Of a stretch of 64,000 nucleotides of DNA, positions 9,965 to 55,028 are shown piece after piece. Where the stretch lies: the IMG/VR virus record IMGVR_UViG_2541047712_000002. The stretch is one strand, 5' to 3'. Each line of letters opens with the position of its first letter. Position 1 is the stretch's first letter. Under the pieces are notes generated by a model that ran no database searches, was not told the DNA's origin, and saw only the letters and a program-made list of their open reading frames with translations. The position numbers and the translations under genes were made by a program. This DNA is from a virus. Its lineage: Duplodnaviria > Heunggongvirae > Uroviricota > Caudoviricetes.

Positions 9965-10065
9965 AAAGCCATTTCTGCTTAGTAACCAAACACATTAAAT
10001 AGGTAATGACTCACTTATTCATTTTAGCTATAGTCACGACACTTACTCACTTGAAAGGACTCAAT

Positions 10066-10191
10066 ATGGGAAACAAACGTAAACAGGCGCGTCGCGCAGC
10101 TCGTCAGGCAGTGAAGTCAAAGCCACGCATCCACGGCTACGAAATTGACACAATCATCGTTAATGAACAGCAGTTGCACGAGGTGAAGTGA
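10066..10191 (+). CDS. small basic protein
   Basis: MGNKRKQARRAARQAVKSK...; stop overlaps glutaredoxin ATG (TGATG). Confidence 0.3.
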   Translation: MGNKRKQARRAARQAVKSKPRIHGYEIDTIIVNEQQLHEVK

Positions 10192-10436
10192 TGAAAGTCG
10201 TTATCTACGGACGAGATAACTGCTCATACTGCAAACGTGCGGTCGAGCTGGCGAAGCAACTAAAGGGACATGGCTACGGTGATTATGAGTACATCGACAT
10301 CACTACTGCCGGTATCGATAAGGAAAAACTTAGCGAAATTATTGGTAAACCGGTAGAGACTATCCCCCAGGTATTGATCGATGGCCAACCGATTGGCGGA
10401 TACACAGAACTTGCAGCTTACATAAATTTGTTATGA
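10191..10436 (+). CDS. glutaredoxin-like protein (NrdC/NrdH-type redoxin)
   Basis: CSYC (CxxC) active site near N-terminus, ~81 aa, glutaredoxin fold pattern. Confidence 0.8.
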   Translation: MKVVIYGRDNCSYCKRAVELAKQLKGHGYGDYEYIDITTAGIDKEKLSEIIGKPVETIPQVLIDGQPIGGYTELAAYINLL

Positions 10437-10643
10437 CTAGTATGGCCGCTAGCCACACCATCCTTGATTAAAAAAAACACAATCGTTATAAGGAGCAATC
10501 TTCATTGTTGATAAGACGACTTAACTATACTTATCCTATACCTCAGGTGTTATGTTATAACATTTGATACTTGGGGAAGATTATGTTACTTAAAGCATTA
10601 AGGATTGGATTGATCGCAGGCATCTTTTGTACGTGTACAACGT

Positions 10644-10868
10644 ATGTCGCTGGAAAAAACAGTAGATGTTAAATTCCCGTCTGAAAAAGATAAAGTAGCA
10701 TACTCGGACGTCATAAAAGGTTTTGACTATAAAACTTATAAATTTCGCGCGAAGAAGGGACAACACCTTCAGATATTACTATCAAATGAATGGAGTGAAC
10801 ATATCCATATCTCTTTGGGCCAAGCATCGAAGATTAGATTGTTCTTGATAGAAGCTCACCTTGTCTAA
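10644..10868 (+). CDS. hypothetical small protein
   Basis: 74-aa ORF in AT-rich region. Confidence 0.25.
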   Translation: MSLEKTVDVKFPSEKDKVAYSDVIKGFDYKTYKFRAKKGQHLQILLSNEWSEHIHISLGQASKIRLFLIEAHLV

Positions 10869-11042
10869 ATGAGCAAGCGAAATATATGCTTCATGAATCA
10901 GGCGTATATTAATTACGTGTAAGACAAACACGAAATAATGCAAGGGAAGATTAAAAGTAAAAATACAATATTGAACGTAAAATACACTAAGAGTTAGTTA
11001 TACAGAAAATTCAACTAAGCCGGGCAGTACTGACGTTGTGTC

Positions 11043-11073
11043 AACCTTCCATTTTCATGGAAGGTTTTTTTTT
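11043..11073 (+). terminator. Rho-independent terminator
   Basis: 10-bp stem aaccttccat/atggaaggtt, loop tttc, followed by 7-9 T. Confidence 0.7.
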
Positions 11074-11533
11074 GCTTGCGATATAACAATAGCAAACACT
11101 CATAATCTAAAAGTATTGAGTCTACATAAAACTCACGCCTTAACCTCATGACAATCAGGCAAAAATAACAATAGAAACTATTTAAAATTTTATTTTTTTT
11201 ATATTTAATCTAAACATTATTTTATCTTAACCCTTTGTTTTTTAAGAAATTCATGCAGATCACAAATATTTGAAAAACAATATTATTACCTGGCTTGTGT
11301 GTTTTTTATTGATTTTAAACACCACGATTATTGTCTTTGTCAGAATAATAGTCTAGGTTATTTGGCTTGTGCAGATCTTTTATCTATAATCGTTGTTTGA
11401 TGGGTTTATATTTTTCAGTAAACTTCAAAAAAAAACACGAATGTCTAACTAGGTTATATTCAGTTCATTTTTGTCAAATTATTAAATTATCACCTGGCTA
11501 AACTGATAACATTTACCTACTCAGGTGGCTGAA

Positions 11534-11821
11534 ATGAGGATTTCGTTAAATGAAAAAATAAAGGGAGAACGGTTTAATACGCCGGGAAACATGTCAAGGG
11601 AGCACTTTAACTTACTAATTGAGCTATCACCCATAAGTAGCGAGAAGGTAAGATTAGCTTTATACGATTTTTTCGTTGACGGAGTAACACGTAAGGAAGC
11701 GTGCACCAGACACAATGTTTCACAAGGATATTTTTCTATTAGTGTAAGAAAATTCATTCAGGTTAATGATAGAGTAACAAAGGCTGTTAAATATTACTTG
11801 CCGAAATACTTAATTGTATAG
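11534..11821 (+). CDS. PapB/FocB-family fimbrial transcriptional regulator
   Basis: NMSREHFNLLIELSPISSEKVRLALYDFFVDGVTRKEACTRHNVSQGYFSISVRKF matches the PapB family pattern; sits upstream of the fimbrial subunit gene. Confidence 0.65.
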   Translation: MRISLNEKIKGERFNTPGNMSREHFNLLIELSPISSEKVRLALYDFFVDGVTRKEACTRHNVSQGYFSISVRKFIQVNDRVTKAVKYYLPKYLIV

Positions 11822-11932
11822 CTCTGTTTTTTGATAATGGAGGTGGTTAAACAATAAAAACCGTAATATAAAACACATTCAGTTCTTAATATTTTATTTT
11901 TCCATTTAATTTTATTTAAAGATAGGTTAGAT

Positions 11933-12574
11933 ATGAAAAAGCTGACTCTTATTGCAACGTTAATGGCATCTGCTATGTCATTCTCATCTCACGCTGCTAC
12001 AACATCAGCAAGCGTGAATATTACCGGCTCGATCGTTCCATCTGCATGTGCAATTAGCGCCAGTGCAAATGGAGGTACTATTGACTTTGGGAAAATCCTT
12101 TCATCAGAACTTGGTGAGCAGGGTGTTACACGTAAGGCAAAGAACGATACTCTTACTATTACGTGTGATAAAGATACTACGGCCGTAGTAAAAGTTAGTG
12201 GAAGCAATGGTGTAGATGGCAACACTTATAATTCAGATAAAGACTTCGTTAAAATTGCTGTGCAATTTACCGACGTAAATGTCACTGGCGGTAATGCTAC
12301 AAATAAATTCCTCGTATCTAACGCAGCATCTGTAGATTTAGATAATCTGACGGCAGCAGGTTTTACCACCGCAGCAGGAAATAAACCGTTATTCCCGTTC
12401 AATGGAAACTATCTCGCCGTTGCTGATACAAACAATAGCGTTGGTACATTTAAGACATTGACTGCAAATTATAGCGTCAGCGCGGTAGTGCAAAACGCTT
12501 CTGCTAAACGAGCTCTTACCCAAGGTGAACAAACCTTCGGTGGCGCAGTTACATTCGAACTGAACTATCTATAA
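11933..12574 (+). CDS. fimbrial major subunit (chaperone-usher pilin)
   Basis: signal peptide MKKLTLIATLMASAMSFSSHA, Cys pair, C-terminal donor-strand-like ...FGGAVTFELNYL. Confidence 0.8.
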   Translation: MKKLTLIATLMASAMSFSSHAATTSASVNITGSIVPSACAISASANGGTIDFGKILSSELGEQGVTRKAKNDTLTITCDKDTTAVVKVSGSNGVDGNTYNSDKDFVKIAVQFTDVNVTGGNATNKFLVSNAASVDLDNLTAAGFTTAAGNKPLFPFNGNYLAVADTNNSVGTFKTLTANYSVSAVVQNASAKRALTQGEQTFGGAVTFELNYL

Positions 12575-12626
12575 CCCATAATTAATAAACAGTAACGGAG
12601 TAACCTCCGTTACTGTTATAAAAAAC

Positions 12627-13295
12627 ATGATCAAAAGAATATTTCTACCTATATTAATGAGCATTCCATGTTCAGTATATGCTTTAGGAATGCAACCTGA
12701 AACAACCGTTTTAATATTTAACGAAGAGAAGAATGAAGCTTCTATTTCTGTTAAGAATACAAACAGTGTGCCAAGCCTACTTCAAACAAAAATTGTGGAT
12801 ATAGGGGAAGCTGAAAATGTTCTAGTATTATCTTCACCATCAATAGTTAAAATAGAACCAGGAGAGTCTCAAATAGTAAGATTCTTTTTGAAAAAGAATT
12901 CTGATTTTGATACTCAGATACTTAAGAGAGTAAGATTTTTAGGTGTGCCTGCAAAGCAAGAAAGCAACAAAGAGAATTCATCTTTAACTTTTACAGTAGG
13001 TCAAAGTATCCCTCTTCTGATAAACCCTGTGGGGCTAAAAGTTGATCGAGAACCATGGAAACACTTAACGTATAGTTTCGATGGAAGAAATATTATTATT
13101 TCCAACCCATCTAAATATATCGTTAGAATGTATCCTGAAGTTAAAGTAAATGGAAAAAAAATAAAAGTCGAGCAGTCATATATTACCCCTAGAACAAAGC
13201 TGACCATTAAGTATGAGAGACCGCCATCTGAAATAACAATTGTACCAGTTGGTTTATATGGTGAACTTAGAGATGAATATCAAATCAAGAATTAA
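12627..13295 (+). CDS. periplasmic fimbrial chaperone (PapD-like)
   Basis: signal peptide, position between pilin and usher. Confidence 0.7.
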   Translation: MIKRIFLPILMSIPCSVYALGMQPETTVLIFNEEKNEASISVKNTNSVPSLLQTKIVDIGEAENVLVLSSPSIVKIEPGESQIVRFFLKKNSDFDTQILKRVRFLGVPAKQESNKENSSLTFTVGQSIPLLINPVGLKVDREPWKHLTYSFDGRNIIISNPSKYIVRMYPEVKVNGKKIKVEQSYITPRTKLTIKYERPPSEITIVPVGLYGELRDEYQIKN

Positions 13296-15669
13296 AATAT
13301 CTAAAAAATTATTAGCCGTTTTTATCTCTTTATATGTATCAAATGTTTACGCAGAAGCCTATTATTTTGATGATATAGAGTTGAAAACTATTGGATTATC
13401 AAAAGATGCAGGTAACACCTTATTAAAATCTGATAGATTTCAACCCGGGACTTATCATGTAAATATAGTTTTAAATAATTTGCCTACCAATTACCATGGA
13501 AAAATTCTTATTAACAATAACGGTTCTCCTTGTATCACAGGTTCGTTGCTGGAGGACATAGGAATAAATATAAGCAGGTTGGCATTCGACCATGACTTGT
13601 GTTTGAAAGAGTCTCATAAGGAAGGTGTCTTTTTTTATACTAAACCAAAAAGCCAGTCCATTGAAATATATGTCCCTATTAGTTATCTTTTATCTAATGA
13701 AAGAACATATAGCCATGGTGGTACTGCAGCTATTTTTAACTATAACATTCATGCATTAAATTCACGAGGAAAATTTGGTAACACGAATAACTACACAGCT
13801 TTTCTTACATCCGGATTTAACACTGACGATTGGATATTTCGTAACAAAACTATCGTAAGTTCCTATGATGGAAATAACGACATTAAAAACTCTGAATTAT
13901 TTGCCCAAAAAACTTTTGATGGGAGTGGTAAAACGCTAAAAGTCGGTAGTATAGATTCATTTGACCAGTTTTATGGTATGTCTTTGATTGGTTTAAATTT
14001 GAGTCCAGAATCAACATTTTCTAGTGGAATGTCCACTACAATAACAGGTTTTTCTAATGATGACTCTCAAGTGGAGATCTATCAGGCAGGGCAGCTTGTG
14101 TATGTAGGGCAAGTACGGGCAGGCCGTTATAATATTGACTCAGTACCTGTTCTTAACACTCAAACCCCTTTCGAGGTTGTTTTAGTTAATCAAAATGGAA
14201 CGAGATCAAAAAGAACAATAACAACTGCGGAGGCACTTATAAACTTAAAACAAAAACAAAGCAATGGCTTTTCATTGTCTATTGGAAAAGCGAACGATTT
14301 TAAAAGCTCAATATTTAATGAACCTGTTGTATTAACTACGAATTATGGTTGGGATACCCTTGGTAATTACACTTTTAGCAGTGGCAGCTTAATTACAAAT
14401 CAATTCTATTCATTGGCTGGCAGTGTTACATACTCATCATCGAGTAAGAATAATATTACTTTAACTAATTATGTGTCGTATTTAGATTTCAAAGATAATT
14501 TGAATAAAAAACGTATTGGAAACAGTTCAAGCATAACTCTTTCAAATCAATTTTACGACAATGTTAAAATGACGAACGCTTTTATTTATAGAACAAGTGG
14601 CTATAGAGGGATTGAAGATTTAAGCTCAGATGATTTCTGGAATTATAAATGGCAACAAACTAATAGTATATTTGCATCGTTGAAAAGTTTTGGCACCTTT
14701 GGTCTTACATATTCATTGAATGAGAGAAGTGGTCATCGTGAAAACAGCTACGGTGTGTCATGGGGAACAAACATCTATAAAGCTTATTTGAGCACAAGCA
14801 TTCAAAAGCAGCGTGTAAAATATAAAGATGATTATTCTAATGAAACTAGGTTTTATGCCCAGCTATCAATTCCTTTATCCAATAACCAAGGGATAAACTC
14901 GTCATATTCTTCTGGCAAAAAATGGAGTCGGACTGCTGTTGACTATCGGCAATATAATAGTAACACATTTAACTATGGCCTCGGTTATGCAAATGAGCAA
15001 TATGCTTCCACATCTATCAATGCAGGTTACATAGAGGCATCTAAAACATTCAGGACAACTCATGTTGGAGCAAGATACAATTTTAACCAAAACTATAAAT
15101 CACTAGCAAGTTATGCAAGCGGTGGATTACTGATAAATAATAATGCAATCACTTTATCGCCATATGAAATTGGTGACACCTTTGCCTTGATAAGAGTTGG
15201 AAATTATCCCGGTATAGAATTACAAACACCAAACGGTAAGGTATGGACTGATAATCGAGGTAATGCTGTAGCCTCTAACTTGAATCCATATACTGCAAAC
15301 CAAATTCAAGTAGTACCAGAAAACTCACCTCGTAATATAGATGTAATGCAAGGCATAAAAAAGTCGACTCCATTTAAAGGAAGCGTTAATCAAATAAGAT
15401 TTGATGCTAAGAAAGTCCAGAGATTATTGGTATATGCAGTAGACGCGCTGAATAAACCTTTACCTTACAACGCCGAAGTAGTAAATCTGGATGATAACAC
15501 AATTATGGGATTTGTAGATCATGATGGTTTAATATTCTTCAGTGACATACCATCAAAAGCTGTTAAGGTAAATATCACACAAAATCAAAGTTGCATAATT
15601 GATTTTAGCAAGTATAAAAAAACAGAAGTTAATGAAATATTTAGCACGACACATCTAACTTGTAAATAA
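13273..15669 (+). CDS. outer-membrane fimbrial usher
   Basis: ~800 aa, signal peptide, N-terminal YYFDD...FQPGTYHVNIVLNN usher motif, C-terminal Cys pair; start taken at ATG 13273 rather than the overlapping track start 13240. Confidence 0.8.
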   Translation: MNIKSRIKISKKLLAVFISLYVSNVYAEAYYFDDIELKTIGLSKDAGNTLLKSDRFQPGTYHVNIVLNNLPTNYHGKILINNNGSPCITGSLLEDIGINISRLAFDHDLCLKESHKEGVFFYTKPKSQSIEIYVPISYLLSNERTYSHGGTAAIFNYNIHALNSRGKFGNTNNYTAFLTSGFNTDDWIFRNKTIVSSYDGNNDIKNSELFAQKTFDGSGKTLKVGSIDSFDQFYGMSLIGLNLSPESTFSSGMSTTITGFSNDDSQVEIYQAGQLVYVGQVRAGRYNIDSVPVLNTQTPFEVVLVNQNGTRSKRTITTAEALINLKQKQSNGFSLSIGKANDFKSSIFNEPVVLTTNYGWDTLGNYTFSSGSLITNQFYSLAGSVTYSSSSKNNITLTNYVSYLDFKDNLNKKRIGNSSSITLSNQFYDNVKMTNAFIYRTSGYRGIEDLSSDDFWNYKWQQTNSIFASLKSFGTFGLTYSLNERSGHRENSYGVSWGTNIYKAYLSTSIQKQRVKYKDDYSNETRFYAQLSIPLSNNQGINSSYSSGKKWSRTAVDYRQYNSNTFNYGLGYANEQYASTSINAGYIEASKTFRTTHVGARYNFNQNYKSLASYASGGLLINNNAITLSPYEIGDTFALIRVGNYPGIELQTPNGKVWTDNRGNAVASNLNPYTANQIQVVPENSPRNIDVMQGIKKSTPFKGSVNQIRFDAKKVQRLLVYAVDALNKPLPYNAEVVNLDDNTIMGFVDHDGLIFFSDIPSKAVKVNITQNQSCIIDFSKYKKTEVNEIFSTTHLTCK

Positions 15670-15683
15670 GCTTTGAGGATCTC

Positions 15684-16199
15684 ATGTTTAAATTTTTTAT
15701 ATTGACATGCTCTTTGTTTTTATGCACAACCTGTTTTGCAGCAGAGTGTTCTATAACCAGCTCGCCAAATAATATATCTTTAGGTGATTTTTCCTTTGGT
15801 TCTCTAACTAAGGAAAAGGTAGCAGATCGATATTATTACACCATGAAAAAAGATATTATGATTAGTGCAAAATGTAGGAATGCATCTAACATATCATTTG
15901 TCTATTCTGCACCATATAACGGTATGGGTTTTACAATTGGTGGTGTTGATGGTTATTATACAATCAAAGTAAATAAGTTTATAGTTAATGGGGTTAGTAG
16001 GGAAGTTAGGTATGTAGACACTAACAAGAAAGTTGATTTTATTTTACCTGAGACCGCAGTTCACACTGCGATTGGAGGTGAAGATTATAGCGTTGACGTT
16101 AACTTAATGCTAAACATAGCTTTCTATTTTAATCCAAATACATCCTTAGGCAATTACAGTATTTTTACAACTGGCGAGTTTCATCTCCAAGCTCTTTAA
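15684..16199 (+). CDS. fimbrial minor subunit / putative tip adhesin
   Basis: signal peptide MFKFFILTCSLFLCTTCFA, last gene of the chaperone-usher operon. Confidence 0.6.
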   Translation: MFKFFILTCSLFLCTTCFAAECSITSSPNNISLGDFSFGSLTKEKVADRYYYTMKKDIMISAKCRNASNISFVYSAPYNGMGFTIGGVDGYYTIKVNKFIVNGVSREVRYVDTNKKVDFILPETAVHTAIGGEDYSVDVNLMLNIAFYFNPNTSLGNYSIFTTGEFHLQAL

Positions 16200-25679: not shown

Positions 25680-25951
25680 AAGAATTATGGCGCTTGTTGA
25701 GGAAGTCACTCCTCTTACGCACTTTGTTTTGCCATGCCGGCAGTTAGCTTCTGCCTTTGACTATTCATGCGGCAACCCCGCATTTCGCCACAATGGGCAA
25801 TTCACTTTTATGGAATAAACTGGCCGTTGTGTCGATTTAATTAGCATGGCCTTACCATGCTAATTTATTCAACTTGTACAATCCTACAAATCTATCCACT
25901 CAGGCTTACACCGTCTTCGTTATTGTAGAAATGAGGATCATCAGCGTTGAA

Positions 25952-26167
25952 TCAGCTTAGAGCAACGACATTTGCTGCTGCTGGGCCTTTAGCACCATTC
26001 TCGATAGAGAATTCGACCTGCTGGCCTTCTTCCAAAGTGCGGAAATTATTACTCTGAATTGCCGAAAAATGTACAAAAACATCTTTACTGCCATCAGCAG
26101 GAGAAATAAAGCCAAAGCCTTTATCAGAGTTAAACCATTTTACTAAACCAGTCATTTTATTAGACAT
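25952..26167 (-). CDS. cold-shock protein (CspA family)
   Basis: [21 protein letters not shown]...[11 protein letters not shown] motifs; ATG at 26167 with RBS, rather than the longer track ORF. Confidence 0.85.
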
Positions 26168-26471
26168 AGATATTACCTTCTTAATTTTGTGAGCCACATA
26201 GTGCGGCGAGAATTTGATCTGTATAGATTGGGACTTACTTAGGCACTTAAGGAGGAGACTCACGAAGAAGGGAAATCAGAAGATAACACTGAACTGAGAC
26301 TGCTTTACTAAAACTGCTTACATAAGGTCTGTCTTGCAAACCAACGATGCTATTAACGCATACCCCTTCTTTTCATGCAACCTTTATTTTTCAAAGATAA
26401 CTAATTTTTGTCACCATTGGTTTAGTAAACGTTAACGAACCAGACGATGCCAGACACCTTTACAGAGAACA

Positions 26472-53436: not shown

Positions 53437-53597
53437 TTTGTTCTGGCGTCTGTAATTAGCCTGCTTCTGTATATATAAATAACTACATATTAATTATTAA
53501 TATACGGAAGCAGGCTGTTTTGTATCAGAGACTCCAGACCTGAACATCACTACAGAATCCACTAGAACCCCTTCCCAGACGCTTTAAAATCGATTTT

Positions 53598-53852
53598 ATG
53601 AACCACTTTAAGGAAACCAACATGTCATACCCGACTAATGTCGTTGCGCTCGTAGAGAGCGATTTTCTGGCCCAGGCTCGTGAAATGATGAAAGATCGTG
53701 AGCAGGCTTTCAACTTGTACGAGTGGGCAATTAAGTGCTTGCATCTTGGCGAGCATCGCGAACTTGTTGAACAGCTTTTAGGTGAGTTGATCAATGAGGT
53801 GTTTGCCTTGAATGTTCAACTACATGGTCGAGAAAATAATCAATCACAATGA
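53598..53852 (+). CDS. hypothetical protein
   Basis: 84-aa ORF. Confidence 0.35.
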   Translation: MNHFKETNMSYPTNVVALVESDFLAQAREMMKDREQAFNLYEWAIKCLHLGEHRELVEQLLGELINEVFALNVQLHGRENNQSQ

Positions 53853-53879
53853 TAGATAAGTACAAACTATTTATAAAGT

Positions 53880-54380
53880 GAATTGTAAGTGCTAAGATCT
53901 GATAGTTTCCAGTCGTAGACTGGAGACTCGACCTGATGGGTGGGGGTAAGCGTCACTGGCGTCAGGTTTAAAAAAGCTCACTACCAGCGTAGAACCGGTG
54001 CCGTTTAGGTGTCGGGGAAGGGGGAACCAAAGTGAGCAGAGACAAGGGTCACTTTATGATTGTCGAGTCTGGGGTGTTTCGAGAGGTTGAATCCAGTACT
54101 CCCCTTCATAAAGTGTGGGAAGATCTCGGTTCTGGGGTGCTGTCATCCATAACTTCCCAAGTCTAAGCTGGCAGTAGACTTAGACCATAGCTTTTCAGGT
54201 TATGAAACGACCAGGTTGGTGAGGAATTTTATACTCACCTCCCTGGGAGAGTATTACCTGAAAAGACAACCTCTCACTTCGTTCGAGGTGAACTTCACTC
54301 ACTTCGTTCGTTCAGTTCAGGTTTATAAAAACCTGTTCTGGGAAGTAATTTGTTTATTTTAATAATTATTAACACGCACG
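53880..54380. other. ORF-free ~500-nt region with local hairpins; candidate structured ncRNA
   Basis: no ORF of 60 aa or more on either strand; several short inverted repeats and a tandem cacttcgttcg repeat. Confidence 0.2.
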
Positions 54381-54434
54381 CGTGTGCGCACGCGCGAGGA
54401 AAAAATCGGCGCGGCGCTTGATTCAGGAGTTTAT

Positions 54435-55028
54435 ATGACGACGAAGACACCAGCCCGATCGCAAGCAAAAACTCGCAAAAAAGCCAAAAACAAAAAATCT
54501 CCCCGCACCAATCCCACAACGCCTGTCGTAGAGTTCAATCCCCAGCTCAAAACCGTGAAAATCTTTAGTGATGGCTCTTGCCTTAAAAATCCGGGTGGCC
54601 CGGGCGGTTACGGTATCGTTCTCCAGTATCGTGGTGAGGAACGCGAGTTCTCAGATGGTTTTCATAGCACCACCAATAACCGCATGGAGATGATGGGCGC
54701 ACTTATCGGGCTGGAGCGTTTGAAATATCCATGCAACGTTATTTTGTACTCTGATAGCCAGTATCTGAAAAACGGCATGACACAGTGGATGAAATGGTGG
54801 AAACGTAATGGATGGATGACTTCTGATAAAAAACCGGTAAAGAATGTTGATCTGTGGAAACGTCTGGATGAGGCCGCAAGTCGACATAATGTTCGCTGGA
54901 AGTGGGTTAAAGGTCACGCCGGGCATCGTGAAAATGAAATATGTGATCGACTCGCGAAGATCGCAGCTTTTTCAGCAGCAGATATGCCTCACAAGAAAGA
55001 TATTGGTTTTGTTTATAACAAGTGGTAA
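54435..55028 (+). CDS. rnhA: ribonuclease HI with N-terminal basic extension
   Basis: [20 protein letters not shown]..., [31 protein letters not shown] match RNase HI; about 40 Lys/Arg/Thr/Pro-rich residues precede the core; start taken at ATG 54435. Confidence 0.85.

Follow-up and report, generated by a model that had tools for sequence, protein, structure and literature searches.

The segment analyzed here comprises 64,000 nucleotides (nt) of the virus record IMGVR_UViG_2541047712_000002. This whole segment (the window, whose coordinates are used throughout) derives from a phage-plasmid of the SSU5/pHCM2 type, and our subject is a stretch of it free of open reading frames (ORFs). Upstream of this stretch lie a Dam-type methylase gene and an ORF of 84 amino acids (aa), orf84, the latter ending at 53852; downstream lies rnhA, the gene for RNase HI. 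The region is 98.5% identical to that of Escherichia phage Cyrano (pLF82) and ~82% identical to that of Salmonella phage SSU5, and the E. coli plasmid pRHB31-C19_2 is 100% identical to it across the ORF-free part. We consider it probable that the plus strand from about 53905 to 54362 constitutes a gene whose product is a non-coding RNA (ncRNA) of ~455 nt, stable and highly structured, which is specific to SSU5/pHCM2-type phage-plasmids. This structured RNA is the main feature of the stretch, and the tract of alternating purines and pyrimidines that follows it is a separate small element.

The original prediction for this locus, made from the sequence alone, had reported the absence of any ORF of 60 aa or more, and this is correct for ORFs lying wholly inside 53853-54434, the longest of which have 48 and 44 aa. 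Two further ORFs extend across the 3' edge, one of 74 aa on the minus strand (54295-54519) and the other a GTG-extended rnhA frame from 54384; neither is conserved, because both cross an indel-rich spacer and a run of A. The local hairpins that had been reported also withstand scrutiny, since the z scores for the folding of the 536-nt stretch, against dinucleotide shuffles, are -6.3 (plus strand) and -5.4 (minus strand), and of the reported tandem repeat there remains a 13-nt motif, CTCACTTCGTTCG, which does occur twice, as a direct repeat with a 12-nt spacer and not strictly in tandem. The suggestion that the stretch may encode a structured ncRNA is now sustained by above-neutral conservation, compensatory pairs, a promoter, a terminator and published RNA-seq; both the conservation in relatives and the transcript, the latter in published data for phage Cyrano, thus exist. 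The features of the transcription unit are as follows.

53852-53871, no strand assigned: operator-like palindrome of 20 bp, a degenerate copy of ATAGGTAAGTACTTACCTAT, overlapping the orf84 stop codon and the -35 zone of the RNA promoter
53890-53898, plus strand: extended -10 promoter TGcTAAGAT (in relatives TGaTAAAAT or TGtTAGAAT)
53905-54362, plus strand: probable gene for the ~455-nt ncRNA, on the evidence of conservation, compensatory pairs, RNA-seq and the lack of a conserved ORF or Rfam match
53904-53928, plus strand: P1, the 5'-terminal hairpin, kept as a hairpin and not in sequence, with three compensatory pairs
53930-53968, plus strand: P2, a G-rich hairpin (GGGUGGGGG) with three compensatory pairs (AU to GC, CG to UA, AU to GC)
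53976-54038, plus strand: P3 domain, with the long-range closing helix GCUCACU / AGUGAGC and the unpaired G-rich GGGGAAGGGGGAACC
54040-54275, plus strand: central multi-helix domain, nearly invariant, with hairpins at 54048-54115, 54116-54159, 54161-54185 and 54191-54265 in the RNAalifold model
54032-54166, plus strand: CYRAN_81, an annotated ORF of 44-45 aa
54273-54310, plus strand: two copies of CUCACUUCGUUCG (54273-85 and 54298-310), with starts 25 nt apart
54312-54362, plus strand: terminator-like 3' hairpin UCAG-UU-CAGG...CCUG-UU-CUGG (54312-54346), extended by GAAGU and then by the U-rich tail AAUUUGUUUAUUUU

Distribution, Selection and Coding Status

The relatives collected for comparison comprise 12 phage records, 687 PLSDB plasmids, 71 IMG/VR loci retrieved via RNase H and 51 metagenome contigs retrieved via an invariant motif of the RNA. 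The 687 PLSDB plasmids carry the RNA gene, and so do 232 of the 5426 complete E. coli genomes, where it is never annotated. An nhmmer profile run against the collected loci, together with distant blastn searches covering E. coli genomes as well as phages and plasmids, detected homologues in SSU5-like elements only; the window has no second copy, and nothing similar was seen on chromosomes. When the RNase H protein was compared with genome contigs, only chromosomal rnhA was found, at no more than 62% identity and without a syntenic RNA.

In these alignments, the core of the region (53927-54416) is the most conserved stretch of its neighborhood. In the divergent clades of SSU5, Klebsiella and Salmonella Anatum types it is 86.5-93% identical to the window, whereas the flanking genes (methylase, orf84, rnhA and orf164) are only 74-82% identical; at the four-fold degenerate sites of these genes the differences amount to 43-71%, which is near saturation, as compared with 7-13.5% in the core. 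Therefore, purifying selection acts much more strongly on this non-coding stretch than on the genes beside it. The first 74 nt past the orf84 stop codon, on the other side of the core boundary, are not conserved in sequence.

Could such selection act on a small protein? CYRAN_81 is annotated in phage Cyrano and listed there as an expressed "moron", so that its 44-45-aa product might be regarded as the functional one. This possibility is contradicted by the state of its reading frame, which is broken by 1-2-nt indels in three clades (L115, Klebsiella L003 and L150), and the alignment of relatives contains no frame common to all clades on either strand. Moreover, the conservation continues evenly for ~300 nt past the ORF on both sides, and RefSeq has no coding sequence (CDS) under the match in any of the 232 E. 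coli genomes. We accord the small-protein explanation next to no probability and, as judged from the alignment, the RNA gene is not protein-coding.

The Fold of the RNA

The fold was modeled with RNAalifold from 61 sequences (57 distinct), giving 159 pairs in which 98.6% of the cells form standard pairs. Compensatory changes occur in 12 pairs, amounting to 129 cells in 6 of the 22 helices, as against 33+/-6 cells in column shuffles, none of which reached the observed value in 500 trials; slid controls that keep the relatedness of the sequences yield 2-5 compensatory pairs and 6-22 cells. With an extended set of 98 distinct sequences the compensatory pairs rise to 14. The helices thus supported are P1, P2, the long-range closing helix of P3, two central hairpins and the terminator hairpin. 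In P1, for example, columns 8-29 read CG:23 / UA:20 / AU:9, and the 5' segment encompassing P1 and P2 (53903-53970) folds with -34.1 kcal/mol and z = -5.1. Columns 83-141 of P3 read UA:34 / CG:14 / UG:9, becoming UA:38 / CG:40 in the extended set. Within the central domain, compensatory pairs are confined to the hairpins 54048-54115 and 54161-54185, the remaining pairs being invariant. Two loop-proximal pairs of the terminator hairpin covary, and the 3' domain has z = -5.9.

Between the central domain and the terminator, a 43-nt block around the two repeat copies is invariant in all 61 sequences. In the predicted pairings of the model, copy 2 of the repeat pairs with the Shine-Dalgarno-like CGAGGUGA, and the ACUUC of copy 1 with the GAAGU of the 3' end. 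Two short segments of the RNA recall the translation apparatus: a stem at 54234-54242 contains UCACCUCC, which is identical to the anti-Shine-Dalgarno tail of 16S rRNA, and at 54283-54290 there is a perfect Shine-Dalgarno-like GAGGUGA, whose partner in the model is the repeat UCACUUCG and which no start codon follows.

We assign the RNA to the plus strand because of the promoter, the U-rich tail and the behavior of the shared helices, for which the paired cells fall to 88.4% when read on the minus strand, with 10.6% G-U. The G-U argument is supportive, not decisive, and the call depends mainly on promoter, terminator and shared helices together.

A scan of 53800-54450 with Rfam 15, which the original prediction had proposed, gave no gathering-level match; with E values up to 10 there are five matches at chance level (the best with 21 bits against a threshold of 56), none of them in the conserved core upstream of 54190. 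ARAGORN found no tRNA or tmRNA at the locus, and searches of the literature on pHCM2 and SSU5 yielded no description of an ncRNA. The antitoxin RNA of a type III toxin-antitoxin system was considered and rejected, for the sole repeat is the 13-nt motif present twice, in comparison with a tandem array of ~36-nt units, and the downstream gene encodes RNase HI and not a ToxN-like protein. The RNA is a new, unannotated family that matches no family in Rfam 15, its diversity being too narrow for a covariation proof of the whole fold.

Transcription and Expression in Lysogens

Throughout the clades the extended -10 element keeps its TG, TA and AT columns, with variation in the flanking bases, and transcription would start at about 53905. 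The palindrome immediately upstream, whose TAAGTA core is invariant in the alignment, belongs to a recurrent set. Sequences near ATAGGTAAGTACTTACCTAT recur at least 12 times in the window with up to four mismatches, and copies with no more than three mismatches number five, against none in 100 shuffles; the 20-bp sites lie at 109, 7065, 9999, 28045, 32831, 34784, 38584, 43268, 47978, 52812, 53852, 55025 and 59994. They are situated mostly at gene boundaries, often overlapping the preceding stop codon, and are usually followed by TGn and a -10 element. The recurrent palindrome looks like a dispersed operator-promoter cassette, for which a repressor would be the putative ligand. A long perfect hairpin (AGCCTGCTTCTGTATAT...ATATACGGAAGCAGGCT) at 53459-53517, directly after the methylase gene, contains another degenerate copy of the motif and is likely to be a terminator.

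Expression data exist for phage Cyrano, in the lysogens of which CYRAN_81, lying inside the region, was classed as a hypothetical-protein "moron" (PMC9928086, Table 1 and S1). Its average normalized count in LB (lysogeny broth) is 117, with log2(fpkm+5) values of 6.8-10.35 over 10 samples (fpkm, fragments per kilobase per million), in comparison with 9.5 (3.1-5.8) for the upstream neighbor CYRAN_80 and 8.4 (2.6-5.0) for rnhA downstream; the repressor CYRAN_45, with ~96, has a profile similar to that of CYRAN_81, and RepA reaches ~133 (6.6-8.3) (PMC9928086). The RNA level is consequently ~14-fold lower at rnhA, which stays at background in lysogens, than in the RNA region. These data fit a discrete RNA that ends before rnhA and is expressed in lysogens near the level of the repressor and RepA mRNAs. 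The drop would correspond to a termination efficiency of ~93%, even if a difference in stability could equally explain it; the U-tract of the terminator is weaker in the Klebsiella clade. The locus hence combines what is expected of an independent ncRNA gene, namely a conserved TGn plus -10 element, a terminator hairpin with U-rich tail and a transcript above its neighbors, with ends that are predicted.

The Slot Downstream of the RNA

The features between the terminator hairpin and the next palindrome-promoter cassette, which lies 3' of the RNA at 55025 and overlaps the rnhA stop codon, are these.

54347-54371, no strand assigned: AT-rich spacer, overlapping the U-rich tail; across relatives both its bases and its length change (columns 456-500 of alignment A1), the AT-richness being kept
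54372-54396, no strand assigned: alternating purine-pyrimidine tract of 25 nt (CA/CG/TG), ACACGCACGCGTGTGCGCACGCGCG, Z-DNA-prone by sequence
54397-54408, no strand assigned: AGG, A-run (here A6, 54400-54405) and TCG, the last stretch common to loci of rnhA type and cargo type
54435-55028, plus strand: rnhA (RNase HI), with ATG at 54435 and Pfam RNase_H at E = 1.2e-45, the usual occupant of the slot 3' of the RNA

Is the RNA bound to the gene that follows it? Among the 44 metagenome loci with enough downstream DNA, which are independent of rnhA because they were fetched by the RNA motif, rnhA is in place at 37 and replaced or interrupted at seven. The genes found there instead are GmrSD-like HEC-06 (PADLOC E = 2e-215; Pfam GmrSD_N and GmrSD_C), HEC-08 (E = 6e-146), an HNH type IV restriction-like enzyme, JukA and JukB (E = 7e-66 and 9e-14) and a lipoprotein-like gene. 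All seven cargo-type loci retain the RNA, the AT-rich spacer, the alternating tract, AGG, the A-run and TCG, and the homology between the two types of loci stops directly after TCG, at 54408. Conversely, two loci (L146 and L147) have rnhA at ~80% protein identity without the RNA. Since the RNA is kept where rnhA has been replaced, and rnhA occurs without it, regulation of rnhA is not the dedicated task of the RNA, which needs no phage RNase H. The position after the RNA behaves as an exchangeable slot for cargo or defense genes.

Several details of this slot deserve mention. The cargo lies 3' of the RNA motif at loci L213, L204/L210, L195, L180/L207 and L209; remnants of rnhA persist in L195, L204, L210 and L213 (from residue ~165 to the C-terminus) and in L207 (from ~93), and a 35-nt leader, CCCATCGCAATGTCTTCAATGTGCCAGGAGCGGA, is common to L195, L204, L209, L210 and L213. 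The A-run at 54400-54405 has five to nine residues (A5-A9) in E. coli elements that are nearly identical (columns 531-540 of alignment A1), indicating homopolymer slippage at the border of the slot. In the reference record of SSU5 (L002, NC_018843), the RefSeq "Rnase H" CDS at 4844-5608 has 765 nt and starts ~156 nt upstream of the conserved ATG, thereby running through the alternating tract and the indel-rich spacer, whereas the equivalent open frame of the window goes back no further than a GTG within the tract, at 54384; the start codon annotated in SSU5 is probably wrong, making the gene over-long.

The exchange of genes behind the RNA bears on the proposal that it is a cis-acting leader or attenuator, that is, the 5' untranslated region (UTR) of an operon in which alternative pairings among the recurring ACUUC, GGGAAG and CUUCCC segments gate the terminator and thus set the expression of the slot gene. 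Competing complementary segments do exist, for instance 54149-59 with 54339-49, the RNA level falls 14-fold across the terminator, and between the RNA and rnhA there is no conserved promoter, the next cassette coming after the rnhA stop codon. However, the competing segments are invariant, leaving the switch without covariation support, and an RNA of ~450 nt with at least five domains is far larger than attenuation needs. It is also retained unchanged before unrelated genes, the fixed association with one gene that is typical of riboswitches and leaders being absent (37 of 44 for rnhA), and the RNA is missing in L146 and L147 where rnhA is 80% identical. We regard a leader function as unlikely, and a leader dedicated to rnhA would not accord with these findings.

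The Alternating Tract

The tract of strictly alternating purines and pyrimidines, reported originally as a 24-mer, is present and extends over 25 nt, the 24-mer being 54373-54396 and its first coordinates having been ~2 nt off. It is the longest alternating run in the window, the next longest having 15 nt, while by our arithmetic the chance expectation of a run of at least 25 is 64000 x 2^-24 = 0.004. Its nested palindromes are ACGCGT (54378-83) and TGCGCA (54385-90). Of 73 related loci scanned, 70 have an alternating run of 18-29 nt; among the three that do not are L146 and L147, which lack the RNA altogether. The run is shortened to 10-21 nt where rnhA is replaced, and L121 carries a 10-nt deletion in it.

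The original prediction viewed this tract as a possible Z-DNA-forming, supercoiling-sensitive switch or operator controlling rnhA. Strict alternation over at least about 12 bp, rich in CG, CA and TG, is the classic sequence of Z-prone DNA, and the tract has it over its full length; the run is kept in nearly all relatives, the readable substitutions in its core are all transitions, and its position just 3' of an AT-rich segment resembles that of a GC-rich discriminator. This evidence needs some qualification, since transitions preserve alternation by definition and would be equally expected of an RNA hairpin that tolerates G-U pairs. Moreover, no conserved -35/-10 pair of a sigma-70 promoter flanks the tract, which stays with the RNA module before unrelated genes in its shortened form and is partly deleted in L121, and rnhA is at background level in lysogens. 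Control of rnhA by a Z-DNA switch therefore seems to us quite improbable.

We rejected an RNA hairpin as an explanation of the tract: for the segment 54366-54434 the folding energy is -23.2 kcal/mol but z is -1.6, there is no compensatory change, and the 3' arm is absent in cargo-type loci. The tract would rather serve the slot border as an accessory element of DNA or RNA; to judge from its letters, it may be a Z-prone or slippage-prone border element, bind a protein, or form the discriminator-like part of a weak promoter located in the spacer.

A Proposed Role for the RNA

The evidence presented so far is best accommodated by the following sequence of events. Transcription would begin at the extended -10 promoter directly behind the recurrent operator-like palindrome, and would produce first a protective 5' hairpin and then several domains arranged around a multi-helix junction. 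The 3' hairpin and its U-rich tail would let only a small fraction of transcription pass downstream, insulating the slot. The RNA is made in the lysogenic (plasmid) state, and 3' of it come, in order, the AT-rich spacer, the alternating tract, the A-run and the replaceable slot, occupied usually by rnhA and sometimes by anti-phage defense.

How might such an RNA act? Complementarity of at least 13 nt to other parts of the window is absent, there being only matches of 11-12 nt in about the number expected by chance, and long antisense pairing is probably not its mode of action. Our guess is that, acting in trans, its fold provides a scaffold or decoy to which a conserved host or phage factor binds, because its loops as well as its stems are invariant across genera and no long antisense target occurs in the window.

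A different role is suggested by the location of the RNA within a module of T4-like replication and recombination genes, adjoining rnhA and having UvsY, a gp32-like single-stranded DNA-binding protein (SSB), RecA and the alpha subunit of DNA polymerase III (Pol III) nearby. According to this explanation, the G-rich transcript would hybridize to its template, be processed by RNase HI and prime DNA synthesis at the AT-rich spacer, forming an R-loop primer or lytic origin. The 5' half of the RNA has a GC skew of up to +0.42 and eight runs of at least three G, an AT-rich stretch follows the RNA directly, and the primer RNA II of ColE1 is of similar size. Nevertheless, the locus has neither an RNA I nor a ColE1-type Rfam match, and no conserved minus-strand promoter is seen inside the RNA. 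MOB-suite recognizes a single replicon type (rep_cluster_488), the plasmid initiator RepA lies ~17 kb away, and the cumulative GC skew does not turn at 54 kb. Expression takes place in lysogens, loss of the phage rnhA leaves the element in place (even if the host RNase HI could substitute for the lost enzyme), and a conserved folded structure speaks against a persistent hybrid. On balance, a priming function has little probability.

Returning to the independent ncRNA gene, some points weigh against it or limit what it can explain. The ends of the RNA are known by prediction only, and the published counts span just a 135-nt feature. No conserved separate promoter for rnhA was found, and formally, therefore, the transcript of rnhA or of the cargo also has the RNA as its 5' part. 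As many as 107 of the 159 model pairs never vary, so that the fold of the central domain stands on thermodynamics alone, and the family, confined to elements of Enterobacteriaceae with at least 86% identity, affords low power for covariation. The minus strand folds well too (z = -5.4), its own RNAalifold structure being 97.8% paired. The search for antisense targets covered phage-plasmid DNA, 64 kb of the ~110 kb of the element. Going beyond the gene itself, we put forward only tentatively, and with less than even confidence, that it represents a class of large folded RNAs needed in the carrier state, be it for copy number, for the decision between lysis and lysogeny or for neutralizing a host factor or defense through a conserved protein or RNA, and that it also marks and insulates a hotspot of defense exchange.

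Other Features of the Element

Elsewhere in the window, a block at 10001-16000 has a low GC content (0.34-0.35, vs. ~0.45 in the rest) and is probably acquired cargo. A full-length match to the Rfam cspA thermoregulator (187.6 bits, E = 7e-50) lies on the minus strand at 25927-26345, the phage-plasmid carrying a cold-shock-protein gene together with its thermosensing 5' UTR. A cluster of tRNA genes on the plus strand at 7832-8446 encodes Asn(GTT), Tyr(GTA) and Ser(TGA); in T5-like phages, the defense by retron Ec78 is reportedly cancelled by a phage tRNA-Tyr (bioRxiv 10.1101/2023.03.15.532788). The anti-retron Rad was considered as well and set aside, being an unrelated protein of 189 aa.

Significance and Comparison with Known Systems

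Phage-plasmids of the SSU5/pHCM2 type are common in clinical Enterobacteriaceae, and recognition of the RNA gene corrects their annotation at two points, CYRAN_81 and the over-long start of rnhA in SSU5. RNA biologists gain a new large structured RNA with tractable genetics, given Cyrano in LF82 and SSU5 in Salmonella, and the gene points to an adjoining, defined slot of defense-system exchange. If the RNA were to control maintenance or induction, it would bear on the persistence of phage-plasmids in lineages of S. Typhi, Shigella sonnei, Klebsiella and E. coli.

Among known systems, the scattered C1 operators of phage P1 are comparable in idea to the dispersed palindrome-promoter cassettes described here. 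The 25-nt tract conforms to the sequence definition of Z-DNA-prone (CG)n/(CA)n tracts; it borders a recombination-variable slot outside any recognizable promoter, and it is known from sequence. The c4 RNA of P1/P7 and the CI RNA of P4 are likewise RNAs of the lysogenic state that come from a repressor-type regulated region of a phage-plasmid; yet they have ~70-80 nt, arise by processing of a leader and recognize nearby targets through short complementary segments, whereas the present RNA, of ~455 nt, has no complementary stretch as long as 13 nt in the window. With the RNA II primer of ColE1 and the R-loop origins oriF and oriG of T4 it shares its length, a G-rich structured transcript, a 3' AT-rich stretch and an adjacent RNase H gene, while differing in the lack of an antisense RNA I or of homology, in the presence of a separate RepA replicon and in its persistence without phage rnhA.

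Parallels also exist with the large RNAs ROOL, GOLLD, raiA and OLE, which resemble the present one in their length of several hundred nucleotides, their multi-domain architecture, a high conservation that includes the loops, and carriage by mobile elements, as well as in having no coding capacity and no evident antisense target. The RNA described here matches none of those Rfam families and has a narrow range, SSU5-like phage-plasmids of Enterobacteriaceae; compared with them, it offers an identifiable promoter and terminator of its own and a documented expression in lysogens.

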